From positions 1-26,004 of IMG/VR virus record IMGVR_UViG_3300017903_001713: DNA of 26,004 nucleotides. The stretch is one strand, 5' to 3'. A program made the translations under genes and the position numbers. This document shows, one piece after another, positions 3 through 23,490 of the stretch (positions are counted from its first letter, which is position 1; each line of letters opens with the position of its first letter). The notes below the pieces were generated by a model, which saw only the letters and a program-made list of their open reading frames with translations, was not told where the DNA came from and did not search any database. The stretch comes from a virus. Lineage: Duplodnaviria > Caudoviricetes.

Positions 3-467
3 ATGGAATATGAAATTCTTGATAATGCATACTGGGAGGATGGTATCGATGATCGATCTGTTCTCAAGTGTATTCGTATGCACAAACAACCAGATGGTGG
101 GAAAAGGAAAGAGGTTGTGGTATTCTCTCGACTACTTCCAGATCGTTCTTTATGTCCCAACTTTAAAGAAGTGGTTGCAGTGGTTGGAAATGAAAAACTC
201 GATGCAAACACTGCGGAACGTCGTCAAAGAAAGGCGATGGAACAGAAGACAGGCCAAGTCAAACAAGAACAACAAAAGAAAGCGGCACAACTCGAAAGAC
301 TTTTTCATATGAAACTTCAGGCGTTTGAGATACCGGAGATACGTGACAGTAAGAATAGAAAGTTACGTACCGCATTAAGACGTTCTGAAAATGAAGTAGA
401 AATGAATGCATATGCATCTTTGATTATTGGTATAGAAAAAGGAATATTGAATGAGCGAACCGACTAA
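3..467 (+). CDS. Hypothetical phage protein with a charged, helical/coiled-coil central region
   Basis: 154-aa ORF. The window opens with TAATG, a possible stop/start overlap with an upstream gene. Its 3' end overlaps the next gene (451-467). No family recognised. Confidence 0.75.
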   Translation: MEYEILDNAYWEDGIDDRSVLKCIRMHKQPDGGKRKEVVVFSRLLPDRSLCPNFKEVVAVVGNEKLDANTAERRQRKAMEQKTGQVKQEQQKKAAQLERLFHMKLQAFEIPEIRDSKNRKLRTALRRSENEVEMNAYASLIIGIEKGILNERTD

Positions 468-1218
468 AGGGTTTTTGATCGTCGCATCTCGTACAAAGTT
501 TTTTTATTATTCTGCATGTAACCTAATCGAATCCATCAAGGATTTTATGCCGGAGGCCAAGTGTTGTCTGGTTACGGAAGAGAGGTTATTGGATGACAGA
601 GGAAGAGAAATTGCTGACGATCTTATTTTTTGTGATGATCATAAGCGCGCAAAGATATGGGGAATGGCTCGTTCACCTTATGACTTGACGTTTTACATTG
701 ACGCAGACTGTGAGGTTGAACATGAAGATATCTCGATTATCTTTGATCAGTTCAACGGTCACGATGTGTTGTTTACGGGTCTTCCGGTAGAACGCCATTA
801 TTGTTATGCAGAAGTTTACTTTGAGGGTGCACGTCGTCCAGATGGAGAACCCGCAGGGTTTGAGTTGTGTGGGGGTGTTTGTCTCTATGATATGCGTAAT
901 CCTCTGGTTCGGGAGTTTATGCATGATTGGTTTGATCTGACGGTTGAACAATATGCGGGTCGGTGGTGGCCCAAGAAAGAAGACGGAACGGAAGATCTGG
1001 AGAACTATCCCGCATCATTCAAACGATGGGATCAATTCTCTCTTTGGTGGTTGACCAAGAAAGAACCCAAGTTCTTTGATCTGAAGGTGGGAGTGTTAGA
1101 GGACGATGCACGTTGGAACTTCTACTCGAAGTACAAACCACATCTGAATCATAACAAAGATCCTATTGTGATTCGACACTATTCGTCTGCATCGGCAAAA
1201 CAGGAAGTCTATACATGA
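451..1218 (+). CDS. Putative GT-A fold glycosyltransferase (nucleotide-diphospho-sugar transferase, GT8-like)
   Basis: N-terminal beta strand GFLIVAS; 'K..GMARSPYDLTFYIDADCEV' with a DxD motif (nt 700-708); 'WDQFSLW', 'RWN' and C-terminal 'IVIRHYS', all typical of GT8-like enzymes. AAGGA upstream of the start. Confidence 0.75.
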   Translation: MSEPTKGFLIVASRTKFFYYSACNLIESIKDFMPEAKCCLVTEERLLDDRGREIADDLIFCDDHKRAKIWGMARSPYDLTFYIDADCEVEHEDISIIFDQFNGHDVLFTGLPVERHYCYAEVYFEGARRPDGEPAGFELCGGVCLYDMRNPLVREFMHDWFDLTVEQYAGRWWPKKEDGTEDLENYPASFKRWDQFSLWWLTKKEPKFFDLKVGVLEDDARWNFYSKYKPHLNHNKDPIVIRHYSSASAKQEVYT

Positions 1219-1898
1219 TGAAAGACATACCTCTCAATGAAGAGGCAATAGAAATCCTGAACGAGGCATTGTGGTTTCTCAAGGATGAGAGGTACAAGGC
1301 CGTTCCTTTACAATGTGCAAAGTTTGCGACCGTGGCCGATGCGGAACGATACACGAGTCTGGACTTCTTTCAGGAAATTCGACAGAAGGCAGGAGACCAC
1401 AATGGGTTTCCGGATGCATTGGTCGGTCACTCCTTTGGTTCAAGCAATCTTATGTTTGATCCAAAGGGAAGTGAGATCGTTGCAGAAGAAGTCGGTACGA
1501 AACTGACAGATTTTTATCAGAAACTCATGGCCACGTTCAACCTGAGAAAAAACGCATTGTTCTCAGTGTATCCCCCTGAAGTGGGTTACATCTCGTGGCA
1601 CAACAACGCAAATGCGTCAGCGTATAACTTTATCTTCACGTACAGTGAAACTGGAGAAGGGTGGTGGAAACACTATGACCCAATCAAGGATGAGATTGTA
1701 ACCATTCCAGACGTGAAGGGATGGCAGTGTAAGGCAGGATACTTTGGTGCGTATGAAGACGGATACGATAAGATCGTCTATCATGCCGCACGGAATCACG
1801 GAAAGGGCCTGAGAATGACAGTTGCATTCGTTCTCGACCGTAGTGATTTATCACAAGGTTTACAAGATTGGGTTATTGAAGACATTCGCGCTGACTAA
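1215..1898 (+). CDS. Putative 2OG-Fe(II) oxygenase / cupin-fold protein
   Basis: 'YPPEVGYISWHNN', distal 'YHAARN' and 'LRMTVAF' match the H...H...R layout of double-stranded beta-helix dioxygenases. ATGA overlap with the glycosyltransferase stop. Confidence 0.6.
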   Translation: MMKDIPLNEEAIEILNEALWFLKDERYKAVPLQCAKFATVADAERYTSLDFFQEIRQKAGDHNGFPDALVGHSFGSSNLMFDPKGSEIVAEEVGTKLTDFYQKLMATFNLRKNALFSVYPPEVGYISWHNNANASAYNFIFTYSETGEGWWKHYDPIKDEIVTIPDVKGWQCKAGYFGAYEDGYDKIVYHAARNHGKGLRMTVAFVLDRSDLSQGLQDWVIEDIRAD

Positions 1899-1901
1899 AC
1901 A

Positions 1902-1909
1902 TATAAATA
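1902..1909 (+). promoter_or_regulatory. T4-type late promoter (TATAAATA)
   Basis: Exact gp55 consensus in the intergenic gap before the structural gene at 1940. Confidence 0.8.
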
Positions 1910-1939
1910 AAACCATAATACTTTTATGGAATATGTTCT

Positions 1940-2290
1940 ATGGCATACTACGAAGAACTCACGATCGATCAGGGTACCGATGTCGCCATTGATATTTACC
2001 TCGTTAACAAAGATGGTACTAAGAAAGACCTAACAGGATACACGGCTGGTGCACGAATGGCAACCAGTTATGACGCAGATAGTGACGACAAGATTCGTTT
2101 CTCTGCGGGTATCGCTTCACCCGCAACAGACGGGATCGTCAATCTTTCTCTGACCAATGAACAGACTACAGATCTGAACCCCAAGAAACGTTATGTTTAC
2201 GATGTAGAAATATCTCTCGACAGTGACGGTGACACGACGATTGAACGAGTTCTACAAGGACTCATCACAGTTACCCCATCTGTTACATAA
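1940..2290 (+). CDS. Small virion structural protein (BppU N-terminal-like beta-sandwich)
   Basis: Pattern 'LTIDQGTD...DLTGYTA...GIVNLSLTNEQT..L...RYVYDVEI...RVLQGLITVTPSVT' is typical of a small structural protein common in marine T4-like phages. Follows a late promoter. Confidence 0.7.
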   Translation: MAYYEELTIDQGTDVAIDIYLVNKDGTKKDLTGYTAGARMATSYDADSDDKIRFSAGIASPATDGIVNLSLTNEQTTDLNPKKRYVYDVEISLDSDGDTTIERVLQGLITVTPSVT

Positions 2291-2300
2291 GGGGTAATTT

Positions 2301-3158
2301 GTGGCAAACATTCGCGTCGATAAAGTTTTAGTAGGAACACCCAATTACAAAGCTGTACTTGGTGATGCTACGCGAGTACTGAAAATTGAAGTCGGTGTTC
2401 CTACACGAAACGTTCTAATATCAAACCAAGTCAACCTCAACGATGTTGTTGGTATTACCACATCCAACATCCAAGAGGGTGATATTCTTATTGCCGATGA
2501 AAACGGCATACTTGTCAATAGAGCAAACGCAACAGACAGAATCGACGGTAAGGTATTCAACCGTGACTCTGATCGTGGTTTAATATTAATTCGACGTTCG
2601 GGTGACTCTGGAATCCCAGAAGGCCTGTACAGTGGTGAACTTGCGTATTCATATCTCGCAGATCCATCATACGGTACAGGCGGTAACGGTGGTAATCGAT
2701 TATACTTTGGTGTGGGTTCGGATGGAACTCAACTCGCAACTCGTATCGATGTCATCGGTGGTAAATACTTCACAGACCTTCTTGATCATACACACGGTAT
2801 TCTCACAAAGAACTCTGGTGTCATTGTTGACTCAGACAAGAAGATCAATGAGTGGTTGGTTGGTGGTGACCTTACGGTCGATGATAAAATCACTACGGTT
2901 AATTTAGAGGCCGACTCTGCGTCGATCACAACTCTATCTGTAACTAATATTAATGCAGGTGATCTCGCAACTAATCTGGAAGATTTGTTGGTTGCAGGTG
3001 AAGGTATTGACATTGTAAGAGAAGGTAATCAGTTAACAATTAAAGCAGAGTTTGCGACAGACACAAACGCGGGTATTGCAAGTTTCGATTCCGCAGCTTT
3101 CGAGTTGGGAGATTCGGGTCAGGTTGTTGCAGTAATTTTCGACGGTGGATCATTCTAA
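2301..3158 (+). CDS. Tail fibre-associated structural protein
   Basis: GTG start after AAGGGGT. 'ILIRRSG...L.SGELAYS...RLYFG...IGGKYFTDLLDHTHG' is a common fibre N-terminal module, and the protein ends in 'DGGSF'. Confidence 0.65.
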   Translation: MANIRVDKVLVGTPNYKAVLGDATRVLKIEVGVPTRNVLISNQVNLNDVVGITTSNIQEGDILIADENGILVNRANATDRIDGKVFNRDSDRGLILIRRSGDSGIPEGLYSGELAYSYLADPSYGTGGNGGNRLYFGVGSDGTQLATRIDVIGGKYFTDLLDHTHGILTKNSGVIVDSDKKINEWLVGGDLTVDDKITTVNLEADSASITTLSVTNINAGDLATNLEDLLVAGEGIDIVREGNQLTIKAEFATDTNAGIASFDSAAFELGDSGQVVAVIFDGGSF

Positions 3159-3164
3159 TAAATA
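3157..3164 (+). promoter_or_regulatory. T4-type late promoter variant (AATAAATA)
   Basis: 7/8 match overlapping the upstream stop codon, ending 6 nt before the ATG at 3171. Confidence 0.6.
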
Positions 3165-3170
3165 AAGACT

Positions 3171-5501
3171 ATGGCAATTACTAAACTTATACAGAAAAGA
3201 ACCGATGTCCCAGGCCGCAGGCCGGGGATTAGTGACCTATCGCTCGGCGAAATCGCCATCAATACACATGATGGTAAGATGTTCATCAAGAGAGATCAAG
3301 ATGGATCGATCGATGTCATACAGGTCGGTGATGATGCGGTAGAAAATGTCTATTATGTTTCGAAGGGTGCGATAAAAGGAAATTTAGGTACATCACTTCA
3401 GGACGCATTTCAAACCCTTGATTCTGCAATATCGACAGTACAGTCACAGAACGCATTTACCTTTGATCGTGTGAAATGTAAGAGAGACTTTGGTCTTATC
3501 TTTGACGGTCTCTATCACGATATTGCTTTCGGAACAAACTACAATGCGGTAACTTCTGGTCTGTCTTATCAACGTGCAAGTGCAAATGTAGTAAGGGATC
3601 AACAGATTGTCGCGACACGTTCTGGTTTCAATGAGGCAAAAGGTGCGGTTGCATCGGTACCAGAAGTCAAGGAAAGTACGGGTGTTGATGGTGCACTACA
3701 ACGAAACAATCGACATTGGTCAGAAGTTGTAGACATTCTAGTCAACGGTGCAGTATCGACAGAAACGGCCGCAGACACACTTGTATTCCCCGCACCCTCA
3801 GTATTACCTTCAGCGGATGCAGATGATGCGGCAGTTATTCTACAGAACAACCGTGCATATCTAAAAAACGAAGCAATCGCATACATCACTGCAAACTATC
3901 CGTCCTTGACATATGACGAAACGAAGTGTCGACGTGACGTAGGTTTCATTGTAGACGCATTAACATTCGACATACTCTACGGTGGCACACACGGTGTGCA
4001 GATCATTGCACAGTCTTACTTTGTGGATGGTGTGTCTCAGTTACCCGCAGGGCAACAGGCACAGTCAGTTGCGACATACACACACCTTGGTGTCATCATT
4101 GACGAATTGGTACGTAATGCACTGACATCTAATCTAACATCGACCGGATTAAATTCTGGTGGTAATAGTGGTCAGTATGCCACATCGACTGAGGGTAATC
4201 AACTCAAGGATACTTTGGTTCCTATCTTTGTCGACGTGATTGATGATAACAATCTAAACAATCTTCCCGCAAAGGTAGAACCCAACTACACATCACGAGG
4301 TGTGAGTTCAGAATTACGTGATGCGATCACTGCCATTAAAGACCTCGAAGATCTTATCATCACACAGTCGGTAGAACGAGCTGCGACAACAGGAGACACG
4401 GTAATCTATCTGAAGTCAGGTGATTACACAATTAACAATCCGTTGAAGTTGCCACCCAAGACTGCAATCGTGGGAGACAACCTACGAACTGTGACCATTC
4501 GGCCGCAGAGTGTTGACTCAGATCTATTCTACATGGACAACGGCACGTTCATCAAAGATGTGACCTTCCGTGACCATCAAAGTCTTGCTGCATGTGTGGC
4601 CTTTGATCCAAGTGTGGACTCGCCTGGCGCAGGGCCGTTCATTATTCAGTCACCGTATGTTCAGAACTGTACGTCAATTACCACAGATGGTGTGGGTATG
4701 CGTATCGATGGTTCAAAGGCATCTGGTCTACGGTCGATGGTATCAGACGCCTTCACACAGTATAACGCAGCCGGTTTCGGAGTGCAACTATTAAATCGTG
4801 GTTATGCACAGTTGGTATCAATCTTTACAATCTCGACTGCAACATCTATCGAAGCGAAGTCAGGTGGTCAGTGTTCAATTGCAAACAGTAACGCATCGTT
4901 TGGTGACTTTGGTCTGGTAGCTGAAGGATCAAGTCCACCTCTGTATCGTGGACTCCTTGAATCAGATCAGAGTGTGTTTGCGGACGTAGTTCGTTTCACT
5001 GACATACGAAACCTTGACTCGTACAGTTACCTTGATGACTTGAATGCATTCAAGAAACCAAACTATAACGATGCAATTAAGTTTGATAGTGAAGACTTCT
5101 ACTATACGATTACAGATGTTGACTCTGTCAGCCCAGGCGTCTATGATCTGACATTCCAACCACCCATGAACGTTGCAAAACAAGGTGGTCAAAGAGTAAA
5201 CTTTCATCAACGGTCACAGATCACAACCTCATCTCACACGTTTGAATATGTGGGGTCAGGTACAAACACATTTACTGCGATTCCACAGAACGGTGGTATT
5301 CCTAGTCGTGCACGAGAAGTTGTGTTTGACTCTGCGAACCAAGAAGGTCTTGTAGTATTTACAAGTACGGATCAGTTGGGTGACTTCCGAATTGGTGCAG
5401 ACTTGACAATCAATAGGGCAGAAGGCCGGATCGAAGGTGAGACCTTTGAACGATCTCTGTTCGAAATTCTAACACCATACATCTTGGCACTTGAGGGTTA
5501 A
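3171..5501 (+). CDS. Large virion structural/fibre protein with a probable beta-helix domain and two helical KCxRD repeats
   Basis: Fibre-type N-terminus (GEIAINTHDGKMFIK). 'VYYVSK' and 'IYLKSGDYTINNPLKLPPKTAIVGDNLRTVTIRP' resemble a pectin-lyase-like start. Two 'KCxRDxGxIxDxLxxDIxxG' repeats. C-terminal 'FTSTDQLGDFRIG' as in cyanophage-type structural proteins. Confidence 0.7.
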   Translation: MAITKLIQKRTDVPGRRPGISDLSLGEIAINTHDGKMFIKRDQDGSIDVIQVGDDAVENVYYVSKGAIKGNLGTSLQDAFQTLDSAISTVQSQNAFTFDRVKCKRDFGLIFDGLYHDIAFGTNYNAVTSGLSYQRASANVVRDQQIVATRSGFNEAKGAVASVPEVKESTGVDGALQRNNRHWSEVVDILVNGAVSTETAADTLVFPAPSVLPSADADDAAVILQNNRAYLKNEAIAYITANYPSLTYDETKCRRDVGFIVDALTFDILYGGTHGVQIIAQSYFVDGVSQLPAGQQAQSVATYTHLGVIIDELVRNALTSNLTSTGLNSGGNSGQYATSTEGNQLKDTLVPIFVDVIDDNNLNNLPAKVEPNYTSRGVSSELRDAITAIKDLEDLIITQSVERAATTGDTVIYLKSGDYTINNPLKLPPKTAIVGDNLRTVTIRPQSVDSDLFYMDNGTFIKDVTFRDHQSLAACVAFDPSVDSPGAGPFIIQSPYVQNCTSITTDGVGMRIDGSKASGLRSMVSDAFTQYNAAGFGVQLLNRGYAQLVSIFTISTATSIEAKSGGQCSIANSNASFGDFGLVAEGSSPPLYRGLLESDQSVFADVVRFTDIRNLDSYSYLDDLNAFKKPNYNDAIKFDSEDFYYTITDVDSVSPGVYDLTFQPPMNVAKQGGQRVNFHQRSQITTSSHTFEYVGSGTNTFTAIPQNGGIPSRAREVVFDSANQEGLVVFTSTDQLGDFRIGADLTINRAEGRIEGETFERSLFEILTPYILALEG

Positions 5502-5504
5502 TCA

Positions 5505-5876
5505 ATGGCAATCCCATTAAATGAATTTAAAACGAGAACTGCGAAGTTGGTCTCTAAACCTGATGGTGGGTTTATCGGTGATAGTGATGTCATCTATACA
5601 ACTCCCAACGGGATTACTTGTGTTGTGTTGATGGCACAGGCCGCCAACACGTCTACGGATACAGTACACCAAGTCACTTTCCAACACTACGACACAACTA
5701 CAGATGTTGCGACCAACGTGGTTAAGAACTTTGATGTACAACCCAACGATGCAGCGGGTCTTGTTACAGGTAAACTCATTGTAGAACAAAACAATCAAAT
5801 GCGAGCATTCACAGAAGATTCGTCAGGAGAAGACATAAACTTCATCTTCTCATTCTTGCAGGCATTGAACGGTTAA
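5505..5876 (+). CDS. Small virion-associated beta-sandwich protein, hypothetical
   Basis: 123-aa ORF tightly packed between structural genes. 'VIYTTPNGITCVVLMAQAAN...GKLIVE' resembles small marine phage structural proteins. Confidence 0.65.
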   Translation: MAIPLNEFKTRTAKLVSKPDGGFIGDSDVIYTTPNGITCVVLMAQAANTSTDTVHQVTFQHYDTTTDVATNVVKNFDVQPNDAAGLVTGKLIVEQNNQMRAFTEDSSGEDINFIFSFLQALNG

Positions 5877-5880
5877 TTAG

Positions 5881-7977
5881 ATGGCTACTAAAGGACTATC
5901 ACAACTTAGTGGAAAGGTAAGAGTAAGAGGGTTTAGTCGCCTCGACTCAGACCGTTATACTTTCCTTGGTCTGGATCAGGCAGAACCCAATGTAGGTTTG
6001 CCTGCGGACAGTGGTGGTCTTTTCCAATCTGCACTGGACGGTACACGTAGTCTCACAAAGAGCATCTCGATCAATGAGATCATCTATGAAGCAGATACAT
6101 TAGATTCGGTCACGGGTGGTAACGAACGATTTATTATCGGTATCGCAGATCCTACTGCCCGAAACCCTTTGGGAATTATTAGTCTTACTGAACTTTTGGG
6201 TGACAGTGGATTAGGTGCGGACACTCTACAGAAGGTAACAGAGGCCGGAGACTCAACTAGTCTCGCAATCACAATCGGTGGATTGTCTCTTACTGTTGCG
6301 GACTCTGATTCCAACACGAATCAGATCCTTGTATTGAATCTATTGACAGATTCAGTGGGTAAACGATCGTTCGGTGATTTGGCCGACGAAGCTGATTTAA
6401 TTCGTCAGGGTGACAGAGTTGATGCGGGTGGACTGACTCTCACGACAGATAGTTCAAATGACGACACGGTTCTTACGATTGATCTTGTCACCGACTCAGT
6501 AGGCAAACGGTCATTCCAGTCTCTTGCAGATGATGCGGGACTAGTATCTCAGGGTGATCAGATTAGTGCGGGTGGTCTTTCTCTCACAGTTGCAGATTCG
6601 AATCCCGACACGAATCAGGTACTTGTACTTGATCTTCTGACCGACTCAGTCGGTATTCGTTCGTTTGATGATCTTTCTGGAGAAGCGGGTCTTATTGCAC
6701 AAGGTGACGACATTGGTGCTGGGGGACTCACAATCTCTCAGGCCGATTCTGATTCGGACACCAACCAAGTTCTTGTTATTGATCTCGATACCGATTCGGT
6801 AGGTAAGAGATCATTTAATTCACTCGCAACCGAAGCAGGATTGATCGCTCAGGGAGACGATATCAATGCGGGTGGTTTGACAATCAGTCAAGCGGATTCA
6901 GACTCAGACACCAACCAAGTTCTAGTAATCAACCTAGACACGGATAGTGTTGGTAAGAGATCATTTGGTGATCTAGCGGATGAGGCAGATTTAATACGTC
7001 AAGGTGATCGAGTTGATGCAGGCGGTTTAACTCTTACCGCAGATAGTTCCAACGATCAAACCGTTCTGACTATCGACCTTTCTACTGACTCCGTTGGTAA
7101 AAGATCTTTCGATGATCTTGCAGGTGATGCGGGATTGATTGCACAGGGTGATGACATTGGTGCAGGTGGCCTTACTATCTCACAGGCAGACAGTGACTCT
7201 GATACTAATCAAGTTCTTGTCATCAACCTTGATACCGACTCCGTTGGTAAACGATCATTCAATTCCCTTGCGACTGAAGCTGGACTAATTTCACAAGGTG
7301 ACGACATCAATGCCGGAGGTTTGACAATATCCGAAGCTGATAGTGATCCGGATACAAATCAAATTCTGGTTCTTAATCTGGACACGGACAGTGTCGGTAT
7401 TAGAACCTTTGCATCACTTGCAGAAGAAGCTAATATTGGTGCAGACACATTACAATCTGTTACGGAACTTGGTGACTCTACTAGTCTCCCAATAACAATT
7501 GCTGGGTTGTCGATAACCAATCTCGACTCAGGTGAGGCCGGTGATCAACTTCTTGTTCTCGATCTTGCGACAGACTCAGTCGGTATCCGTGATTTTGCAG
7601 ATCTAGTAGAAGAAGCGGGTCTAGGTCAGGACACATTACAAACGGTAACAGATCGTGGTGATTCGACCGACAATGCGATTACTCTGAAGTCTGGTCTACT
7701 CACACCAAACCTACCAGTTAACAATGATACGACGAATGTTCTGGTTCTGACTTCAGACGACAGTGTTGCACAAAGAACCTTTGCATCTCTTGCTGCAACA
7801 GAGGCCGACACATTACAAGATGTGATGACTCGTGGAGATTCTACAACAATCGACATGACCATTCGTGATGCATCTTTGTCTGCGGACTCTGTGAAAGCCA
7901 ATGTCGGTTTCTTTGACACTAATAATAATCAATTGATCATCTACGATTCTGCCGGTGCAGTATTGTGGGGGTCATAA
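5881..7977 (+). CDS. Acidic tandem-repeat fibre-like protein (48-50 aa repeats, DS-rich)
   Basis: 698-aa ORF with nine TDSVG(K/I)R-containing repeats plus one degenerate copy, and four 'DTLQxVxxxGDST' motifs. Confidence 0.8.
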   Translation: MATKGLSQLSGKVRVRGFSRLDSDRYTFLGLDQAEPNVGLPADSGGLFQSALDGTRSLTKSISINEIIYEADTLDSVTGGNERFIIGIADPTARNPLGIISLTELLGDSGLGADTLQKVTEAGDSTSLAITIGGLSLTVADSDSNTNQILVLNLLTDSVGKRSFGDLADEADLIRQGDRVDAGGLTLTTDSSNDDTVLTIDLVTDSVGKRSFQSLADDAGLVSQGDQISAGGLSLTVADSNPDTNQVLVLDLLTDSVGIRSFDDLSGEAGLIAQGDDIGAGGLTISQADSDSDTNQVLVIDLDTDSVGKRSFNSLATEAGLIAQGDDINAGGLTISQADSDSDTNQVLVINLDTDSVGKRSFGDLADEADLIRQGDRVDAGGLTLTADSSNDQTVLTIDLSTDSVGKRSFDDLAGDAGLIAQGDDIGAGGLTISQADSDSDTNQVLVINLDTDSVGKRSFNSLATEAGLISQGDDINAGGLTISEADSDPDTNQILVLNLDTDSVGIRTFASLAEEANIGADTLQSVTELGDSTSLPITIAGLSITNLDSGEAGDQLLVLDLATDSVGIRDFADLVEEAGLGQDTLQTVTDRGDSTDNAITLKSGLLTPNLPVNNDTTNVLVLTSDDSVAQRTFASLAATEADTLQDVMTRGDSTTIDMTIRDASLSADSVKANVGFFDTNNNQLIIYDSAGAVLWGS
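6277..7620 (+). repeat. Coding tandem repeat of 144/150-bp units (GGLTISQADSDSDTNQVLVIxLDTDSVGKRSFxxLAxEAGLIxQGDDIxA)
   Basis: TDSVG codons begin at about 6346, 6490, 6640, 6790, 6940, 7084, 7234, 7384 and 7570 (spacings 144, 150, 150, 150, 144, 150, 150, 186). Confidence 0.9.
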
Positions 7978-7980
7978 ATA
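7973..7980 (+). promoter_or_regulatory. T4-type late promoter variant (CATAAATA)
   Basis: 7/8 match over the upstream stop codon, followed by GGAG (7993-7996) and the gp13 start. Confidence 0.65.
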
Positions 7981-8003
7981 GTAGAAACTATTGGAGAATA
8001 TAA

Positions 8004-8753: not shown

Positions 8754-8756
8754 TAA

Positions 8757-9641: not shown

Positions 9642-10918
9642 TGTTTGGAGATCATTTCTATCATCAACGGATTCGTAATGCGGTGGCCGTATTTGGCTCG
9701 TTGTTCAATAATATAAATGTGGTACGTAAGAATACCAGTGGTGCATCAATAAGTCAAGTAAAAGTTCCACTTTCTTATGCACCCAAGCGTGACTTTCTTT
9801 CACGTCTCGATGCGATGACAGACGGTGAACAGGCTGAACGATCTATCGCAATCAAGTTGCCTCGCATGTCGTTTGAGATTGTTGCTATGCAGTACGACGC
9901 ATTGCGTCAATTACCAAAAGTAAACAATTGCACAGTACCAGGCTCAACCTATGGGGAGTCAAGTCAGGTATACACTCCCGTACCCTACAACATCAACTTT
10001 CAGTTGAATGTCTATGCAAAGGGACAAGACGATGCACTACAGATTGTAGAACAGATTCTACCTTACTTCACTCCGTCATATACTGTCACCATGAAACCCT
10101 TAGAAGACTTTGACGGTATCAAAGAAGACACTCCCGTCACACTACAGGGTATCACATTCTCAGATGACTATGAGGCGCCACTAGAGGCACGTCGTACCGT
10201 CATCTACACATTAGACTTTGAGATGAAGATCTCGATGTACAAGGCAATCGCAACCGCCACACCAATCATTACACAGTACGATATCGAGAATGCAGATCTG
10301 GATGGTAATGTATTCTTCAATATCGTGGACAGTGCAGCGATTGCAACGAACACAATTAAGACCATCAACGAAGATACAAAGTTGACGGTGGATAACTATC
10401 AGGTCAACAATGCACCATTGACGACACATGGATTGCAACTGGGATCAACCACACCATCGAATGGTACTGCGACGGTAACGTATTCAAAACGTTTAGTATC
10501 TGCGAGTGGTATCGTCGTTGCTCAGGGTGAATATACATATCTACCAGACAGTGACTTCAATGGTACAGATACATTCACCATTGACTTGTTGTACGGAGAT
10601 TCTGCAAGTCCACAAAAACTATCGCAGACAATCAACGTCACCATCAATGCGGTGCAGGATGTAACGGCAACGATATTGGGGCCATTCGCAGTAACGATTG
10701 GTGCACCATACGTACTTGATCTTACAACTAATGACAACTTTGCTTCTGCGACGTACAGTCTAATTAGTCAGGGTACTCGTGGTACCGCATCAATTACCAG
10801 TGGGGGTAACCTTACTTACAACGCATCTACGGCCGGAACAGATGAAATTGTTTACGGTGTTACACCAACAGGTGGAACGAGAGAGAATGTTACTGTAAGG
10901 TTCACCAATTCAGTATAA
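9641..10918 (+). CDS. gp15: Tail sheath stabiliser/terminator (T4 gp15-like) with a C-terminal Ig/cadherin-like extension
   Basis: 'FYHQRIRNAVAVFGSLFNNI', 'KVPLSYAPK', 'LPRMSFE', 'DDALQIVEQILPYFTP'. About 200 extra C-terminal residues include 'YTYLPDSDFNGTDTFT'. Confidence 0.92.
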   Translation: MFGDHFYHQRIRNAVAVFGSLFNNINVVRKNTSGASISQVKVPLSYAPKRDFLSRLDAMTDGEQAERSIAIKLPRMSFEIVAMQYDALRQLPKVNNCTVPGSTYGESSQVYTPVPYNINFQLNVYAKGQDDALQIVEQILPYFTPSYTVTMKPLEDFDGIKEDTPVTLQGITFSDDYEAPLEARRTVIYTLDFEMKISMYKAIATATPIITQYDIENADLDGNVFFNIVDSAAIATNTIKTINEDTKLTVDNYQVNNAPLTTHGLQLGSTTPSNGTATVTYSKRLVSASGIVVAQGEYTYLPDSDFNGTDTFTIDLLYGDSASPQKLSQTINVTINAVQDVTATILGPFAVTIGAPYVLDLTTNDNFASATYSLISQGTRGTASITSGGNLTYNASTAGTDEIVYGVTPTGGTRENVTVRFTNSV

Positions 10919-10921
10919 ATA
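10914..10921 (+). promoter_or_regulatory. T4-type late promoter (TATAAATA)
   Basis: Exact consensus over the gp15 stop codon; GAGGAAGGA ribosome-binding site before 10949. Confidence 0.8.
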
Positions 10922-12175: not shown

Positions 12176-12766
12176 ATGGCTGATATTAAAATCTCACAGT
12201 TGGTCGAACTTCAAGCCGCAGACTTGCGAGACAGTGATGTTCTGATCATTAACGATGTAAGCACTACAACCACTAAACAAATAACCTTTGGTAATCTTCT
12301 CTCTGCGTATACAGAAAACGTAGTAGATTCAGACACGGGTGCAAAGGTAACGGGTGATTTTGAAGTTGAGAATGAACTTACCATTGGTGGTGATACGTTC
12401 ACGACGGGTAAGATCACCTTTGGTTCGTTGGAGGATTACACAGAAGATATTTTCATTAGTAAGTTCGTTGATGAAGCAGACGGTATTGCAAACAATGCCA
12501 ATGACTCATGTATTCCAACGTCTGCTGCAGTAAAAGGATATTTCGACGATAATGTTCGAACTGTATATGCAGACTCCGGAACAGGGGACGGTCTAACAAC
12601 GACACTAACACTTATCAATGCAGGTGCGCCACCAGCGATCGCTAACACTCAGGTTTACATCGACGGTGTCTATCAGATGAAGAGTACATACTCTCTTACA
12701 GATGATGTTATTACATTCTCTGAAGCACCACCCAACCTTTCACGAATTGAAGTCATCACGTTATAA
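12176..12766 (+). CDS. Fibre-associated structural protein
   Basis: Same N-terminal module as the previous gene (KISQL...DSDVLIINDVS...TKQI), 'IPTSAAVKGY', and a C-terminal 'VYIDGVYQ...Y...ITFSEAPP' domain. Confidence 0.7.
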   Translation: MADIKISQLVELQAADLRDSDVLIINDVSTTTTKQITFGNLLSAYTENVVDSDTGAKVTGDFEVENELTIGGDTFTTGKITFGSLEDYTEDIFISKFVDEADGIANNANDSCIPTSAAVKGYFDDNVRTVYADSGTGDGLTTTLTLINAGAPPAIANTQVYIDGVYQMKSTYSLTDDVITFSEAPPNLSRIEVITL

Positions 12767-15612: not shown

Positions 15613-15616
15613 AAAC

Positions 15617-15892: not shown

Positions 15893-15899
15893 ATAGTGT

Positions 15900-18800
15900 A
15901 TGCATAATAACTTTTTGGACAAAAGACGTAGACACCTACGTCTACAACCTGATCAGGTGGATCTGGCCTTACCAGAACACTTTGCAGCGTCGTATCCAAA
16001 ATTTATTAATCTTCTATCGTTCTATTATGAGTTTCAGGGTGAACAGAAGGCGACGGAACTTCTCCATCATCTCTTTGCGTCACGAGATATCACAGAAACC
16101 GACATCACTCTTCTCTCATACATTGAGGATGAGTTGTTATTGGGTGATGCATACTTTGAGAGTTTTGCAACAGGTGATGCAGAGAAACGTGCAGCTGCAA
16201 ACTTCTCCAACACATTGTTCCGATCAAAGGGAACTAAGTTTGCAATCGAATGGTTCTTCCGTTCGTTCTATGGTATCGACGCTGAAATCATCGAAACGAA
16301 TCAACGTATTTTTGAGTTAGGTAAACCTGAGTCATCCATTGGCCCCGACTCAGTACATTTTTTAACTGACGACAAGTTGTATCAGACATTTGCGTATCTG
16401 GTACGTTCGTCTATTCCTATCACAGAATGGGAAGAATTATTTAAGTTGTTTGTACACCCCGCAGGAATGTATCTTGGGGGAGAACTATTAATCGAAGATG
16501 TGGTTCAGGCCAGATTGGCATCTGAAGCATTTGATAGTTCAGTTTCAAGTCGTTTGTCTCCTACATATACTTTGGTAACTCAACCTTTCAGTACCGATTC
16601 CGAAGGTACACGGTTTGATTTTTCTTTGCAGGCAACCAATCTACCAAACAATCAGGGTCAGTACAAATACTTTATTAACAACTTAACCACGTCAGAAGAC
16701 GACTTTGCATTTGGTGCGGACTCGACTTTCCCCGATAGTGCAAACAAGCAGACGTTCCTATTGTCACCCAATATGAGTGAAACTGCGGCCGTTGGAATTG
16801 TGACTATTCCCACACTCCACGACTCAGATGAGACTGAAGGTACAGAAAGTTTTCAGGTTTTCTTTGAGGACGAAGAGGGACGTGAAGTAATCAATCAGAC
16901 CATAATCCTAAACGATATTGTCAGTGTTTTCTCAATCAGCGACGACACAGTAGGAAACGAAATCGATGAAGGGGACACTGTTACCTTCACCGTGACTGCG
17001 GAGGCCGGTACAGTACCAAACAACGGTAGTACAACTTTGGAATATCAGGTATTTCCGATCTCTGCGGACAGTGTTGATTTCGCGTCGACTGCATTCCCTT
17101 CAACCGGAACTAGAATTCCATTTAATATACGAGACGACTCAGGTTCTTTCACTGTGTCTACCGTGGTTGATGGTACTTCTGGTGGGGGGGATGACAACGA
17201 AACATTCAACGTCAAGATCTATACACTGTCTGGTATTGAGAAGGCTACGTCGGATACAATCACGATTAACGATCTGAACCCCCAAGACGAATACTCATTG
17301 ACTCCCGCAACCGTGACAATAACGGAAGGGGATGATATCGAAGTCACCCTAGCGACACCGGAGTCTATGATTGGTCGAGACGTGACATACACAATCACTG
17401 GTACTGATAGTAGGGTTCCGAACAAAGCCGGAACACTGACCGTGACCAGCGCGAGTGAGACGTTTACTCTGTCGACCACTTCTTCAAGTGATGTCTATCA
17501 AGGTGCAACCAGTGAGACGATCACTCTCACATCAAGTACCAGTGGTTTCTTTAGTCCAGAACTAACAGACACCGTTGCACTGACAATCAATGATGCAGAC
17601 GAAACATTCGATGACATTGTTGTTGATCTGGCCGGTCAGACAGAAGGTGACACAATCACATTCACAATTACGGGTACTAATCTTCAGGACGGTAACCGTG
17701 CGAAGTATTACATCGATCACGGTGACACAACGAATGCAGACTTCTCTGTCGCACCACCCACAACCGTAGGAACTGCGGCTGCCATATCGTTTACGTCAAA
17801 TTCTGGAACAGTCTCCTTGACATTTGCGGAGAATGGTGATGAAAACAATGAAGACTTTGAGATTGTCATCCTTGATAACGATGACGTTGAAGTTCTTCGA
17901 ACAAGTTACACAATCATTGGTGTGCCTGGGCCGGGTGATCCCCCCGCGCCAGAATATACATTGACACCTCGTTCAACTTCTGTGAATGAAAATGGGTCTG
18001 TTACTGTAGACTTTGAAGTTGTAAATGATGATGATGGATCATATTACTACTATGTTTCTGGTTCTGGTATCACTAGTGATGACTTCAGTTCTGGATATGC
18101 CCCATCAAGTTCAAGGCAAGAGATTACAGTAACATCCGGAATCTCTACAATTGATTTTACTTTAGCCGAAGATCAGGATCGAGAAGGTACAGAAACTTTC
18201 CGTGTGTTTGTTTCGAAAACATCTACGAGTGGTGTTATTGCACAGTCTTCAGAGATATCGATCACTGACACCTCAACACAAGCCTACACAGTCAGTCTGT
18301 CGGATGTTACGGAAGGTTCAACGTTGAACTGTGCAGTAATAGGTAATTTAGCGAATGCCAGTGCAGAGACCATTTATGTGACATTCTCTGGTGCAGGTGT
18401 AACTGATCGTATCACGACATTACAACCCGCGGCACAATCTGTAGGTGCGAATCAGTCTATAATATTCTCTTCTACAACAACTGTAGATGCTGCAGTCAAT
18501 GGGGATCAGACGATTACTGCAACCGCACGAATCGGATCTTACTCTGGTACGATTGTGGGAACAGACACTTCGACAATGTCGGATGCGGCTGCGTCATTTA
18601 CCTTGACAAACAATGGGCCTAAAGATGAGGGTCAGACAGTAACCTTCACCTTTGGAGGTACCAACGTTCCAACGGGTACATATTATTACTGGTTAAACGA
18701 CATTCAACCAGTGCAACAAAATCCTCTGTCATCAACCGCAGCTGGATCTGCAATCATTAGTGTGGTTAATTCAACGGGTGTTAACGTCGGAGATGAAGTT

Positions 18801-19721
18801 CGTGGTGATATCGGTTTCCCCGCAGGAACTACTGTTGTGTCGAAAACATCACAGACAATAACTATGTCTGACAATAACACAGAATCATCTGCTCGTACTA
18901 CTGGTGATTATTACTTTGCAACCCCTACTGTGTGGGAAGACTTTACTGTGTCTACTAATCCACCTTACGGTGAGTTCTCACATACCACTAATACCAGTAC
19001 AACGTTCGATGTTGACATTGCAGACACAGATGATTTGGAAGACGGACTTGAAGTAGACTACACCATGACGGTGAACAGTTCGAACATTGGCCCAGCAGTG
19101 AAGACAAATGTTTTCACAATAAATGATCCCGATGTAGATGACACACCGAATGTACAGAGAGGATCTCTTACTGATCCAGATTCTTACACTTGTATTGGTA
19201 GTGGAAATGATCTGGACACCGCAGCGCCTGAGGACATGCCAACGTGTTCACTCGTTCTTCTAAACACTGGTGCGATAGAAGTCACTCTAGATAATGATGA
19301 TCAAGGAGATCAAACACTAGCTAAAGGTAATTGGATAGACGATACAGATCCAGCAAACTTTACAGCCAGTGATTATGAGTGCATTGCAACCTTTGTGGAA
19401 GGTTCTAACAACAACTCTCAATATCCTGGCGACTTTGGTGTGGCAGAAAATCTAGGATCAAGTCGGGCATGGCAGGTTAAACCACCCAATCCAGCAGATG
19501 ATCAAATTGAAATTGCTTTCGTTGGGTTTGATCTTCTCATACGTCATGTCGATACTGTTAATCGTCCAAGTAATGCAATTACTACACGCATAAATCTGAC
19601 TGCGAATGCAACTGACTTCTCAACTGGTAGTTTACCAGGCGGTGGTGACCCCATTGGCCCGGGCGGTGACCCAGGCCAAGATCCAAACTTGAATCCTGAA
19701 ATTTCGAACAATCCCAGCTAA
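15900..19721 (+). CDS. Baseplate wedge gp7-like N-terminal domain fused to a long array of Calx-beta/Ig-like domains
   Basis: 'LPEHF...YPKFI.LL..YYEF', 'FRSKGT..AIEWFFRSFYG' and 'YQTFAY...W...FKLFVHPAGM' resemble the gp7 core. Repeated 'EGDT(V/I)TFT', 'EGTE(S/T)F' and 'ITIND' motifs follow. Confidence 0.7.
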   Translation: MHNNFLDKRRRHLRLQPDQVDLALPEHFAASYPKFINLLSFYYEFQGEQKATELLHHLFASRDITETDITLLSYIEDELLLGDAYFESFATGDAEKRAAANFSNTLFRSKGTKFAIEWFFRSFYGIDAEIIETNQRIFELGKPESSIGPDSVHFLTDDKLYQTFAYLVRSSIPITEWEELFKLFVHPAGMYLGGELLIEDVVQARLASEAFDSSVSSRLSPTYTLVTQPFSTDSEGTRFDFSLQATNLPNNQGQYKYFINNLTTSEDDFAFGADSTFPDSANKQTFLLSPNMSETAAVGIVTIPTLHDSDETEGTESFQVFFEDEEGREVINQTIILNDIVSVFSISDDTVGNEIDEGDTVTFTVTAEAGTVPNNGSTTLEYQVFPISADSVDFASTAFPSTGTRIPFNIRDDSGSFTVSTVVDGTSGGGDDNETFNVKIYTLSGIEKATSDTITINDLNPQDEYSLTPATVTITEGDDIEVTLATPESMIGRDVTYTITGTDSRVPNKAGTLTVTSASETFTLSTTSSSDVYQGATSETITLTSSTSGFFSPELTDTVALTINDADETFDDIVVDLAGQTEGDTITFTITGTNLQDGNRAKYYIDHGDTTNADFSVAPPTTVGTAAAISFTSNSGTVSLTFAENGDENNEDFEIVILDNDDVEVLRTSYTIIGVPGPGDPPAPEYTLTPRSTSVNENGSVTVDFEVVNDDDGSYYYYVSGSGITSDDFSSGYAPSSSRQEITVTSGISTIDFTLAEDQDREGTETFRVFVSKTSTSGVIAQSSEISITDTSTQAYTVSLSDVTEGSTLNCAVIGNLANASAETIYVTFSGAGVTDRITTLQPAAQSVGANQSIIFSSTTTVDAAVNGDQTITATARIGSYSGTIVGTDTSTMSDAAASFTLTNNGPKDEGQTVTFTFGGTNVPTGTYYYWLNDIQPVQQNPLSSTAAGSAIISVVNSTGVNVGDEVRGDIGFPAGTTVVSKTSQTITMSDNNTESSARTTGDYYFATPTVWEDFTVSTNPPYGEFSHTTNTSTTFDVDIADTDDLEDGLEVDYTMTVNSSNIGPAVKTNVFTINDPDVDDTPNVQRGSLTDPDSYTCIGSGNDLDTAAPEDMPTCSLVLLNTGAIEVTLDNDDQGDQTLAKGNWIDDTDPANFTASDYECIATFVEGSNNNSQYPGDFGVAENLGSSRAWQVKPPNPADDQIEIAFVGFDLLIRHVDTVNRPSNAITTRINLTANATDFSTGSLPGGGDPIGPGGDPGQDPNLNPEISNNPS

Positions 19722-19734
19722 TGAAAACTAAAGT

Positions 19735-21682: not shown

Positions 21683-21684
21683 AT

Positions 21685-21692
21685 GATAAATA
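21685..21692 (+). promoter_or_regulatory. T4-type late promoter variant (GATAAATA)
   Basis: 7/8 match in the gp17-gp18 gap; AAAGGA ribosome-binding site before 21757. Confidence 0.65.
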
Positions 21693-21756
21693 ATCGTATT
21701 GATTAACTTTCCGTATAATGTAACTTATCATAACTCAACGATAAAAGGATACGATT

Positions 21757-23490
21757 ATGGCTCTATTACAGTCTGCATCGCCTAACGTTGCCATTAAAGA
21801 GGTGGATCTGTCGGGCATTGTACCAGCAGTAACTACAACTACTGGTGCGTTTGTCGGCGATTTCGCGTGGGGCCCCGTTCAACAACCAATCTTTGTAGGA
21901 TCAGAAGCAGAGTTGGTTGCTAATTTCGGAGACCCAACGTTCTCAAACGATAGTTCAGCAATTGAGTTCCTTTCTGCTAACCAATTCCTCAAGTACTCAA
22001 GCAATATGTTTGTTGTTCGTGAAGCTACTACTGCTGCGAAGAACGCTGTTGACAGTGGTACGTCTCTTCTCATCAAGAATCGTGATGATTTTGATGCAGG
22101 TAAGACAATCACTGGCGGTGGTAACTTTGCTGCTAAGTATGCGGGAAGTGCAGGAAACTCTCTCAAAATTTCAATCGCAGGTAACGGCCTCGGCTGGGAT
22201 GGATGGACGTATGCATCTTCATTTGATGCAGAGCCAGGAACATCATCATATGTTTCTGCACGATCACCCGACAGCGCTGTTGCAAATGACGAAGTACACG
22301 TCGCAATCATTGACGAAGATGGTACTTTCTCAGGAGCTCCTAACACAGTTCTTGAAACATTTGCAAACGTTTCTCTTGCGACTGACGCAAAAACCTCAGA
22401 CGGAACAACGAACTACCTTCTCGATGTATTGAATGATCGTTCGTCATATGTCTGGGGTGTAAGTCACCCAGCATTCTATGGAACTGCTGGTGCAGCTTCT
22501 GTGTTCGATAGTGACAACCGAGCAGCAACTGGATTAGATTCTGCTGGAGATGATTTCACTCAATCATTCACTGGTGGTGCAAACTCTGGTTCTCTTGCTC
22601 AGGCTCAGTACGAAACAGGTTTCAATCTGTTCGAAGATGAAAACACAATTCAGGTCGACTTCTTGATCGCACCTGGCCTTGCAGACGCAACTGCTCACAA
22701 GACTGTTGTAAACGATCTTGTTACAATTGCAGAAGGACGTAAGGATTGTGTAGTAGTCACTTCACCACATCGTGCAGCGGTTGTTAATGTAAATGACAAC
22801 ACCACGATCACAAATAACATCACAGCAAATGTTGACTTCACGCGATCTTCTTACTTGGTTGTTGACAATAACTACCTCAAGGTCTATGACAAGTACAATG
22901 ATAAGTATCAGTTTATTCCTGCTGCTTCATCAACTGCTGGTACCATGGCATCGACTGACAATGTCGCTGCACCTTGGTTCTCGCCTGCGGGTACACGACG
23001 CGGTCTCTACCGTGGTGTAACATCGCTTGCGTATAACCCAACCAAGTCACAACGTGATACCCTATATAAAGCAGGGGTTAACCCAATTGCGAACTTGCCA
23101 GGCCAAGGTATCGTTCTCTACGGAGACAAGACTTTCTTAGGTCGACCTTCAGCATTCGATCGAATTAACGTTCGTCGTTTGTTCTTGGTCATCGAAAGAG
23201 CTATCAAAGGTGCCGCACAAAACGTACTGTTTGAATTCAACGACGAATTCACCCGTGCAGAGTTTGTGAACATCGTAGAACCTTTCCTCAGAGAGATCCA
23301 AGGGCGTCGAGGTATTACTGACTTCCGTGTAGTTTGTGACGATACAAACAACACTGGTCAGATCATCGACACAAACTCATTCGTCGCGTCTATCTTTGTG
23401 AAGCCTGCACGTTCGATTAACTACGTAACATTGAACTTTGTTGCGGTACGAACTGGTGTAGACTTCGAAGAAGTAGTTGGCGCAGTATAA
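21757..23490 (+). CDS. gp18: Tail sheath protein (T4 gp18-like)
   Basis: 'SPNVAIKEVDLS', 'FAWGP', 'PWFSPAG..RG', 'SAFDRINVRRLF', 'FEFNDEFTR', 'KPARSINYVTLNFVA'. Confidence 0.97.
   Translation: MALLQSASPNVAIKEVDLSGIVPAVTTTTGAFVGDFAWGPVQQPIFVGSEAELVANFGDPTFSNDSSAIEFLSANQFLKYSSNMFVVREATTAAKNAVDSGTSLLIKNRDDFDAGKTITGGGNFAAKYAGSAGNSLKISIAGNGLGWDGWTYASSFDAEPGTSSYVSARSPDSAVANDEVHVAIIDEDGTFSGAPNTVLETFANVSLATDAKTSDGTTNYLLDVLNDRSSYVWGVSHPAFYGTAGAASVFDSDNRAATGLDSAGDDFTQSFTGGANSGSLAQAQYETGFNLFEDENTIQVDFLIAPGLADATAHKTVVNDLVTIAEGRKDCVVVTSPHRAAVVNVNDNTTITNNITANVDFTRSSYLVVDNNYLKVYDKYNDKYQFIPAASSTAGTMASTDNVAAPWFSPAGTRRGLYRGVTSLAYNPTKSQRDTLYKAGVNPIANLPGQGIVLYGDKTFLGRPSAFDRINVRRLFLVIERAIKGAAQNVLFEFNDEFTRAEFVNIVEPFLREIQGRRGITDFRVVCDDTNNTGQIIDTNSFVASIFVKPARSINYVTLNFVAVRTGVDFEEVVGAV

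Follow-up and report, generated by a model that had tools for sequence, protein, structure and literature searches.

Asp-Ser pairs in fibre proteins of an uncultured marine T4-like phage are probably a structural motif, and not the acceptor code of an adjoining glycosyltransferase cassette

We analysed a 26,004-nucleotide (nt) stretch of phage DNA (the window), which is the complete IMG/VR record IMGVR_UViG_3300017903_001713 and an estimated 14% of a genome, with respect to two neighbouring elements: a set of fibre proteins rich in Asp-Ser (DS) pairs, and a three-gene cassette coding for a small protein (open reading frame [ORF] 1), a predicted glycosyltransferase (GT), and a prolyl-hydroxylase-like protein. 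A preliminary description of this DNA had proposed that the GT, possibly with the oxygenase, decorates DS sites over the whole virion as a glycan coat, an interpretation that is partly supported. The DS excess is real and directional, and is confined to a few fibre proteins. We favour, and consider probable, an explanation in which DS pairs serve the structure of the fibres in this phage clade and do not mark acceptor sites for the enzymes, and in which the cassette serves a giant Tyr-rich fibre. Gene linkage, comparisons with phages C48C1 and Melnitz, a deficit of Asp-Thr (DT), and the pattern of substitutions at DS sites all point away from DS as an acceptor code. A phage-encoded DS glycosylation sequon would, if true, be the first case of phage fibres with a glycan coat directed by a sequon and would make virion glycosylation predictable from sequence, but on present evidence it is unlikely.

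The Asp-Ser excess is confined to a few fibre proteins

DS pairs were counted in 22 ORFs of the window, and the expectation for each protein was tested by shuffles. Altogether there are 91 DS compared with 58.8 expected, and 48 Ser-Asp (SD). Only three of the 22 ORFs have p<0.01, namely the proteins of 285 amino acids (aa; p=0.004), 698 aa (the repeat fibre, p=0.0003), and 407 aa (p=0.002); the 196-aa (p=0.05) and 123-aa (p=0.07) proteins are borderline, and the remaining 17 have p values of at least 0.27. Excluding the repeat protein leaves 58 DS compared with 48.4 expected (p=0.10), and excluding the 285-aa and 407-aa proteins as well leaves 43 compared with 43.3. The proposed spread of DS sites across the particle is thus not borne out, and the 776-aa, 944-aa, sheath, tube, portal, and neck proteins show no enrichment in the per-protein shuffles.

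The hand counts in the preliminary description are reproduced for the 698-aa (33), 407-aa (9), 285-aa (6), 196-aa (4), and 776-aa (7) proteins, the 116-aa and 123-aa proteins (2 each), sheath (5), portal (2), and gp17 (1), and for the GT, the oxygenase-like protein, gp13, gp16, and gp19 (none); only ORF1 differs, with one DS rather than zero. It is also correct that the first 415 residues of the 1273-aa gp7-like protein hold eight of its ten DS (2.9 expected, p=0.005), although this sub-window was chosen post hoc. The excess persists when the repeats are collapsed, because the unique N and C ends of the repeat protein are also DS-rich: reduced to a single unit (292 aa), it has 13 DS compared with 3.5 expected (p=0.0002), and by part there are 5 compared with 1.1 in the N end, 23 compared with 7.9 in the repeats, and 5 compared with 1.4 in the C end. 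The direction bias likewise stands (the 407-aa protein has 2 SD and 9 DS, the sheath 2 and 5), as does the view that the signal is at the protein level, with both TCN and AGY codons used for Ser within DS. As to context, Gly lies within two residues after the Ser at 25 of the 91 sites (15% expected), Asp directly follows it at 21 of 91, and [AV]DS[AV] occurs seven times compared with 1.3 expected.

Table 1. Cassette genes, fibre genes, and promoter-like boxes of the window
Feature	Position	Strand	Remarks
ORF1, 154 aa, first gene of the cassette	3..467	+	No Pfam or PHROG match
Predicted retaining GT-A glycosyltransferase, GT8/glycogenin-like, 255 aa	451..1218	+	Assigned by fold and invariant D-x-D; overlaps ORF1 by 17 nt
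Prolyl-hydroxylase-like double-stranded beta-helix protein, 227 aa, His-x-Asn	1215..1898	+	Start overlaps GT stop (ATGA)
TATAAATA box	1902..1909	+	Late-promoter-like; in 41-nt gap between oxygenase-like and 116-aa genes
116-aa protein	1940..2290	+	PHROG family annotated 'L-shaped tail fiber protein assembly' (phrog_1084, E 3e-21; phrog_3304, E 9e-15)
285-aa fibre protein, DS-rich	2301..3158	+	DS 6, 1.8 expected
776-aa tail fibre protein	3171..5501	+	phrog_17885, E 2e-82; DS 7, 5.6 expected, p=0.33
123-aa protein	5505..5876	+	DS 2, 0.5 expected
698-aa repeat fibre	5881..7977	+	10 tandem units of ~50 aa; conserved N and C ends, variable middle
TATAAATA box, second	10914..10921	+	28 nt upstream of 407-aa gene
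407-aa fibre-like protein, DS-rich	10949..12172	+	Ala-periodic stretches; DS 9, 3.4 expected; SD 2
196-aa protein	12176..12766	+	DS 4, 1.5 expected; first 44 residues common with 407-aa protein
1273-aa baseplate-wedge-like protein	15900..19721	+	PF23786, E 5e-11; DS 10, 11.6 expected

The cassette is coupled to a giant Tyr-rich fibre gene in relatives

The three cassette genes overlap one another in the window, and their order is strongly conserved in the 80 related IMG/VR loci that we sampled through the GT family (78 further loci were sampled through the repeat-fibre family). An ORF1 homologue lies 5' of the GT gene in 79 of the 80, and the 116-aa gene lies 3' of the oxygenase-like gene in 77, the other three loci stopping no more than 600 nt from the GT. 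Only 2 nt stand before the ORF1 ATG in the window, so any giant gene upstream is not visible in it. In the related locus L013 a 5'-open ORF of 3180 aa ends at the very base where the ORF1 homologue starts (a stop/start overlap), and among 32 unique loci whose GT is at least 59% identical, 31 have a Tyr-rich ORF (at least 8% Tyr, at least 400 aa) that ends within ~15 nt of the ORF1 start; these upstream ORFs close with ET[YW]TLYVR[VI]A. At 24 more distant loci, a 40-nt rule caught only short ORFs upstream of ORF1. Tyr makes up 9.3 to 17.3% of all ten giants sampled, which contain Y-x-G-[DE]-Y repeats, compared with 0.4 to 6.0% of the window proteins, and DS in the giant ORFs is at 0.0 to 1.5 of expectation and mostly below 1.

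The cassette and the DS-rich genes also appear to be separated from each other. The box TATAAATA, which we take to be the T4 late-promoter consensus, stands between the cassette and the 116-aa gene and again before the 407-aa gene (Table 1), so that the two sets of genes read as separate units. The argument is one of placement in intergenic gaps; the count by itself is weak and not significant, with two occurrences compared with 0.5 expected and 10 of 100 shuffles reaching two. From this arrangement the cassette would be the tail of a giant-fibre transcription unit, and the DS-rich genes would form separate late units.

We suggest that ORF1, the GT gene, and the hydroxylase-like gene constitute a late cassette of their own, translationally coupled in relatives to the upstream giant Tyr/Gly-repeat fibre gene, and that the window's own copy of that gene would lie just beyond the start of the contig. 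Given this coupling, the cassette would mature or decorate the giant fibre, for example through a Tyr- or hydroxy-Pro-linked sugar. The proposal that DS pairs are the acceptor sites of the adjacent enzymes fits poorly with enzymes that are joined in relatives to a Tyr-rich, DS-poor gene and with a late-promoter-like box ahead of the DS-rich genes. The conserved combination, in which a small protein goes with a glycogenin-like transferase and a His-x-Asn prolyl-hydroxylase-like protein, is a candidate for the enzymatic maturation of a phage fibre.

The giant fibre travels with the enzymes, and the Asp-Ser excess does not

The window is a T4-type late region, in which Pfam and PHROGs identify gp13, gp14, gp15, gp16, gp17, sheath, tube, and portal, with fibre-like genes between them; all of its large ORFs are on the + strand. 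At the DNA level, no match to the window was found by megablast among 50,697 phage records. The nearest record for the portal protein is that of Phage C48C1 (65% identity; Kyanoviridae, with no host given in the record), followed by OM43 phage Melnitz (52%), and then by Synechococcus and Prochlorococcus myophages and Pelagibacter myophages (~50%).

Among the same 50,697 records, homologues of both enzymes were found by tblastn only in C48C1, which has ORF1, the GT (54% identity), the oxygenase-like protein (36%), and the 116-aa gene in the same order as the window. There, too, the cassette follows a giant protein, of 3232 aa with 10.6% Tyr and F/Y-x-G-x-Y repeats. C48C1 nonetheless has no DS excess: its structural regions are at 0.89 to 0.92 of expectation, and the fibres just downstream of the cassette are at 0.8 to 1.1. 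No BLAST homologue of the 285-aa or 196-aa family was found in the 83 kb examined, nor of the 407-aa protein genome-wide, and for the protein at the position of wac the match to the repeat-fibre profile is confined to the middle of that profile (E 4e-9); this protein has 5 DS compared with 5.9 expected.

The converse is seen in Melnitz, in which tblastn against the phage records found no homologue of either enzyme. A Melnitz tail fibre aligns at 40% identity with residues 94-267 of the 285-aa protein, and two DS sites of the latter, DS177 (LVDSxKKINEW) and DS263 (GIASFDS), are conserved there, whereas DS102 and DS271 vary even among close relatives. The large proteins of four cassette-free phages (Syn9, S-SM2, HTVC008M, and Melnitz) are 0.3 to 5.1% Tyr in all 12 cases. 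From C48C1 and these cassette-free phages, we conclude that the Tyr-repeat giant fibre travels with the enzymes and that the DS excess does not; the co-occurrence of DS enrichment with enzyme homologues breaks down in C48C1. Within the clade itself there is no such contrast, because every related locus that reaches far enough upstream carries the cassette.

Some further occurrences of these families were noted. C48C1 has a second His-x-Asn oxygenase-like copy (locus L084, 18267-18920; 41% identity over 174 aa) between head/tail genes and uvsY with no GT beside it, and a DNA similarity search pointed to three places in the C48C1 record. In two jumbo phages (L158, 10001-12134, and L159; complete records of 258 kb and 224 kb) the N-terminal anchor of the repeat fibre (36% identity, residues 8-93) is fused to collagen-like GTQ repeats; these phages have no GT homologue (E≤0.001), and there is no DS in the 711 aa seen, with SS at the family's invariant DS position, a pattern that fits either reading of the DS pairs.

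Asp-Ser pairs as a proposed backbone-shaping motif of fibre families

The excess recurs in relatives of the DS-rich proteins. Ratios were computed over unique relatives; these sequences are related, and the ratios therefore describe families and not independent events. DS is at 2.84 and 3.68 times expectation in the 285-aa family (41 and 20 unique relatives), 3.49 and 3.12 times in the repeat-fibre family, 3.13 times in the 407-aa family (37 unique relatives; SD 0.81, DT 0.58), and 2.15 times in the 196-aa family (31 unique relatives). In these four families SD is near 1 and DT is at 0.47 to 0.82. The 776-aa fibre family is only modestly raised (1.44 and 1.55 times), and in the 123-aa family DS and SD are both raised (3.6 to 3.9 and 2.7 to 3.0 times). 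Relatives of gp13, gp14, and gp15 are at 0.3, 0.74, and 0.98 of expectation, and those of the two enzymes at 0.1 to 0.5. DT is at 0.4 to 0.9 of expectation in fibre blocks, and we observed that it is low in almost all of the blocks of loci L003-L082 and lower still (0.2 to 0.5) in the Tyr-rich giant ORFs.

In the repeat fibre, in the 285-, 407-, and 196-aa proteins, and in their relatives, DS pairs keep to fixed positions, typically within [A/V/L/T/F]-D-S-[A/V/D]. The residue after the Ser is Ala or Val in 79% of cases in the 407-aa family, Ala in 48% in the 196-aa family and 30% in the 285-aa family, and Val (27%) or Ala (22%) in the repeat fibre; Asp follows at 12 to 21% of DS sites across families. 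Repeat-fibre relatives (42 unique, 153 to 2394 aa) have common termini with a C-terminal IYDSxGxxLWG, and in 26 unique relatives of ~400 aa (28 to 42% identity) four DS columns are invariant, including that of the hairpin-like C-terminal IYDSxG; a fifth has an invariant Asp followed by Ser in 23 sequences and Thr in three. In the other DS-majority columns of this alignment, the Ser is replaced by a residue with no hydroxyl (G, I, L, R, V, Q, N, A, and others) in 80 of 106 cases and by Thr in 26, where the counts are of sequences and not of events.

We propose that the pairs would stand at turns or strand starts of repetitive fibre modules, with the Asp capping the turn and Ser favoured over beta-branched Thr, an arrangement that would account for the direction bias as well as for the shortage of DT. 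That shortage, the substitution pattern, and the Gly often found soon after the Ser look more like a backbone-shaping pair (an Asp cap, a small unbranched Ser, and then a strand) than a selected hydroxyl acceptor. The [A/V]-D-S-[A/V] signature is a clade-specific, direction-biased mark of several fibre families in abundant uncultured marine T4-like phages, and a structural motif to bear in mind when such fibres are modelled.

Several observations weigh against a purely structural role for DS. The proposed turn or strand-start placement derives from sequence context together with known turn propensities, and a single shared module did not emerge: a profile of the repeats gave E values of at least 0.08 for all other window proteins. 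The fibre block (from the 116-aa gene to gp13) has DS at 2.3 to 3.8 times expectation where GT identity is at least 64%, apart from two loci that end before gp13 (0.8 and 1.6), and mostly at 1.1 to 2.5 times where GT identity is 50 to 62%; the excess thus tracks the cassette-bearing clade, which can be explained by shared descent yet is also what a sequon predicts. Of all [AV]xx[AV] tetrapeptides, [AV]DS[AV] is by far the most frequent in each of the four families (188 occurrences in the 407-aa family, with no [AV]SD[AV]), with [AV]SD[AV] found zero to four times, and it matches the D-S-hydrophobic form of the Bacteroidota glycosylation motif. The structural regions of Syn9, S-SM2, HTVC008M, and Melnitz, which lack the cassette, have DS at 0.86 to 1.01 of expectation and zero to three [AV]DS[AV] each, compared with seven in the window. 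Finally, GT8-type enzymes include protein-directed members, with glycogenin and GlyE, which acts on serine-rich adhesins, among the fold matches of the GT.

A narrowed form of the glycosylation proposal would have the Ser of [A/V]-D-S-[A/V]-type fibre sites O-glycosylated in the cytoplasm by the GT8-like enzyme, either by itself or following the action of the hydroxylase-like protein, so that the neck and tail fibres acquire a glycan coat. We regard this as unlikely, although several points speak for it. The DS excess extends through the clade, has a direction and the character of a motif, and affects four or five fibre families of the phages with the cassette, and the four cassette-free ones show none; the cassette lies among the late fibre genes; the structure model and alignment bear out the GT fold and D-x-D; and there are precedents for glycosylation of Ser beside Asp, in SdgA/SdgB acting on Ser-Asp repeats (PMC3794999, PMC8561734) and in the Bacteroidota D-(S/T)-hydrophobic motif (PMC12871550). 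Against it, C48C1 has the cassette with no DS excess and with three of the four DS-rich families not found; DT is depleted; Ser gives way to residues with no hydroxyl three times as often as to Thr; in relatives of the 407-aa protein the N-terminal DSD becomes DDD, DDV, or DND; two of the DS sites, as seen in Melnitz, are older than the cassette or have survived its loss; the gene to which the cassette is coupled codes for a Tyr-rich fibre poor in DS, and a promoter-like box lies between the cassette and the DS-rich genes; and the sheath, tube, portal, and neck proteins are not enriched.

Another reading is a chemical role for DS, independent of the enzymes, as ligands of Ca2+ or other metals on the trimer axis or as receptor contacts; metal binding was among the alternatives named in the preliminary description. 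The persistence of the invariant DS columns at 28% identity, the frequent D-S-D or otherwise acidic neighbourhoods, and the N-terminal site of the 407-aa family, which stays acidic while the Ser varies, would suit such a role; the commonest context, [AV]-D-S-[AV], has only one acid, however, and no known metal-binding family was matched in Pfam or PHROGs, and we consider it improbable.

The cassette enzymes are assigned at the level of fold

Both enzyme families are large and were seen only in metagenomic viral contigs. The adjacent D-x-D glycosyltransferase of the preliminary description holds up, as a predicted GT-A enzyme: the structure model (predicted local distance difference test [pLDDT] 91.5, predicted template modelling [TM] score 0.90) has glycogenin, the UGGT catalytic domain, LgtC, and GlyE as the top Foldseek matches in the PDB (E 3e-9 to 1e-7, TM 0.46 to 0.57), with glycogenin first, and also matches viral GT8 and GT-A models (E 4e-9 and weaker), and D84-A-D86 is invariant in 34 of 34 aligned family members. 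The window protein itself matches no Pfam family at E≤0.01, and hence no Glyco_transf_8-type profile, and no PHROG; 18 of its 34 relatives have a weak match to PF00535 (family 2; best E 6.5e-4). One GT relative, P0075 (60% identity), is a 427-aa fusion with a PF13489 methyltransferase domain, which may be a sign that some phages also methylate the transferred sugar or its acceptor.

For the protein described as an oxygenase, the fold is upheld and the catalytic signature is altered. The model (pLDDT 93.6) is closest to prolyl hydroxylases in VIA-align (6f0w, Z 10.8; 4iw3, Z 10.6; 6t8m, Z 10.4; PHD2, Z 10.0), with 149 to 157 residues aligned at a root-mean-square deviation of 3.0 to 4.3 and a Foldseek E of 3e-5; the collagen prolyl hydroxylase of PBCV-1 (vCPH, Z 9.9), NgTET1 (Z 9.2), and other 2-oxoglutarate (2OG) oxygenases come just below. 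H129, N130, N131, H190, R200, and T202 are invariant in all 40 members, so that in place of a His-x-Asp/Glu...His facial triad there is an Asn at the acid position (H129-N130-N131...H190, assigned by spacing). The His-to-His and His-to-Arg spacings are 61 and 10, compared with 61 and 9 in PHD2, and R200-x-T202 lies where the motif for the C5 carboxylate of 2-oxoglutarate (R/K-x-S/T) would be expected. The protein has no Pfam or PHROG match, none of 40 relatives matches a 2OG family at E≤1, and an Atlas search returned only unnamed viral clusters, with named families below threshold at 0.87 to 0.89 (2OG-FeII_Oxy_3 and Asp/Asn hydroxylase at 0.87). PDB sequence searches with both enzymes and their family profiles gave nothing meaningful. 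The labels 'glycosyltransferase' and 'oxygenase-like' are thus supported at the fold level by the models, and classical hydroxylase chemistry is uncertain because the invariant Asn stands at the position of the Asp ligand.

Folds of this kind also raise the question of whether virion proteins are the target at all, since the cassette might instead modify host envelope glycans or phage DNA. Cyanophage GTs have mostly been interpreted as acting on the cell surface or on DNA (PMC12801897), dioxygenase and GT pairs are reported to hypermodify DNA (10.1101/2023.12.21.572611, PMC13326640), and both LgtC, a lipooligosaccharide transferase, and NgTET1 are among the structural matches given above. We nevertheless think this quite improbable: the gene order stays constant within the late fibre block across all 80 loci, a stop/start overlap joins the cassette to a giant fibre gene, prolyl hydroxylases outrank DNA enzymes among the structural matches, and no methyltransferase or nucleotide-metabolism gene lies adjacent by Pfam and PHROGs.

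Two observations concern oxygenases and their possible substrates more generally. An ORF at 25761-26003, which overlaps the end of the portal gene at its start and continues beyond the contig, has collagen-type G-x-y repeats (PF01391, E 1e-8), and it is conceivable that this collagen-like virion protein is another substrate of the prolyl-hydroxylase-like protein. In HTVC008M there are five annotated 2OG-Fe(II) oxygenase genes in the structural module (L087, 34809-37682 and 41199-41780), four just before gp13 and one after gp16, so oxygenase-fold genes are common among the late genes of marine T4-like phages.

Relationship to known glycosylation systems and to fibritin

The pairing of a hydroxylase with a GT has precedents in the collagen lysyl hydroxylase/glycosyltransferases LH3 and Mimivirus L230, and in the Skp1 prolyl hydroxylase PhyA with Gnt1 and the glycogenin-like Gat1. 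The window resembles these in placing a 2OG-oxygenase-fold protein beside a retaining GT-A enzyme, and the resemblance reaches the structural matches, in which Dictyostelium PhyA (6t8m) and the PBCV-1 enzyme match the oxygenase-like protein and glycogenin the GT. It differs in that the metal-binding Asp is an invariant Asn and in that there is no sequence-level family membership; the pairing logic is drawn by analogy.

In the Bacteroidota system, as set out in PMC12871550, the glycan is built on undecaprenyl phosphate and moved en bloc in the periplasm to non-cytoplasmic proteins only, at D-(S/T)-(A/I/L/V/M/T), with both Thr and Ser as acceptors. The DS sites of the window clade are similar in that the Ser is preceded by Asp and followed by a small hydrophobic residue, most clearly in the 407-aa family. 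They differ in the depletion of DT, with [AV]DT[AV] occurring once in the window. Phage fibres assemble in the cytoplasm, and the substrates here would be such fibres; the only candidate enzyme is a small GT-A protein that appears by inspection to be soluble, and Pfam and PHROGs revealed no oligosaccharyltransferase-like gene in the window. Nor do the portal matches support a Bacteroidota host, since the phage groups with cyanophage, OM43, and Pelagibacter myophages and not with known Bacteroidota phages. The analogy drawn in the preliminary description is weakened accordingly by the DT depletion, the restriction of that pathway to non-cytoplasmic proteins, and the phage's affinities.

Another parallel is offered by SdgA and SdgB, dedicated soluble transferases reported to modify Ser-Asp repeats in the staphylococcal ClfA and Sdr adhesins (PMC3794999, PMC8561734). 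There, as in the ADSDSD of the repeat fibre units, Ser is flanked by Asp in repetitive surface proteins; the staphylococcal repeats, however, are long uninterrupted SD runs in which DS and SD are equally frequent, and SD is not enriched here. The SdgA/B fold is of the GT-B class. In mycobacteriophages GT genes lie beside structural genes and virion proteins are the substrates, much as would apply here, and Freeman et al. (2023, Cell Host Microbe) reportedly found glycosylation of capsid and tail-tube C-termini, not of fibres, with no hydroxylase-like partner.

The repeat fibre invites comparison with T4 fibritin. Its gene directly precedes gp13 (start at 8004), which in the T4 gene order is the position of wac, and like fibritin it has conserved ends, a length-variable repetitive middle (153 to 2394 aa in the family), and a short conserved C-terminal motif that resembles a strand-turn-strand. 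Unlike fibritin, its units are ~50 aa long and rich in Asp, Ser, and Gly and are not heptad coiled coil, and neither a fibritin family in Pfam or PHROGs nor a PDB match with the family profile was found.

Neighbouring genes and domains

Each unit of the repeat fibre has TDSVG and usually ADSDSD, and ten units are detected by a profile of the repeats; Tandem Repeats Finder gave no DNA-level repeat in 5881-7977, so that the repeats are visible only in the protein. No Pfam family was above cut-off except for a repeat-driven DUF6462 score, no PHROG was matched, and tblastn against the 50,697 phage records found no match, possibly through low-complexity masking. We also considered whether the 50-aa repeat is a homologous module of the N-terminal motif of the 407-aa and 196-aa proteins, and rejected this, as a profile of the eight best repeats matched the repeat protein only. 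The 407-aa and 196-aa proteins are related to each other by BLASTP (55% identity over 44 aa, E 1e-9), and a tblastn-type search with the 407-aa protein against the phage records matched only a 20% stretch in S-CAM9. PDB sequence searches with the repeat-fibre profile and with the 285-aa and 407-aa proteins returned nothing meaningful.

Genes of the 'L-shaped tail fiber protein assembly' type are also present in S-SM2 and HTVC008M, in which no enzyme homologue was found. The gp15 tail-sheath stabiliser (9641-10918) has an extension of ~200 aa that includes a bacterial Ig-like domain (PF17963, residues 231-316, E 9e-8), compared with ~260 aa for the entire gp15 of C48C1 and Syn9. The 944-aa protein (12778-15612) combines a pectate-lyase-like N-terminal segment (PF12708, E 3e-12) with tailspike PHROG matches and is likely a glycan-degrading spike; it is not DS-rich (4 DS compared with 5.6 expected).

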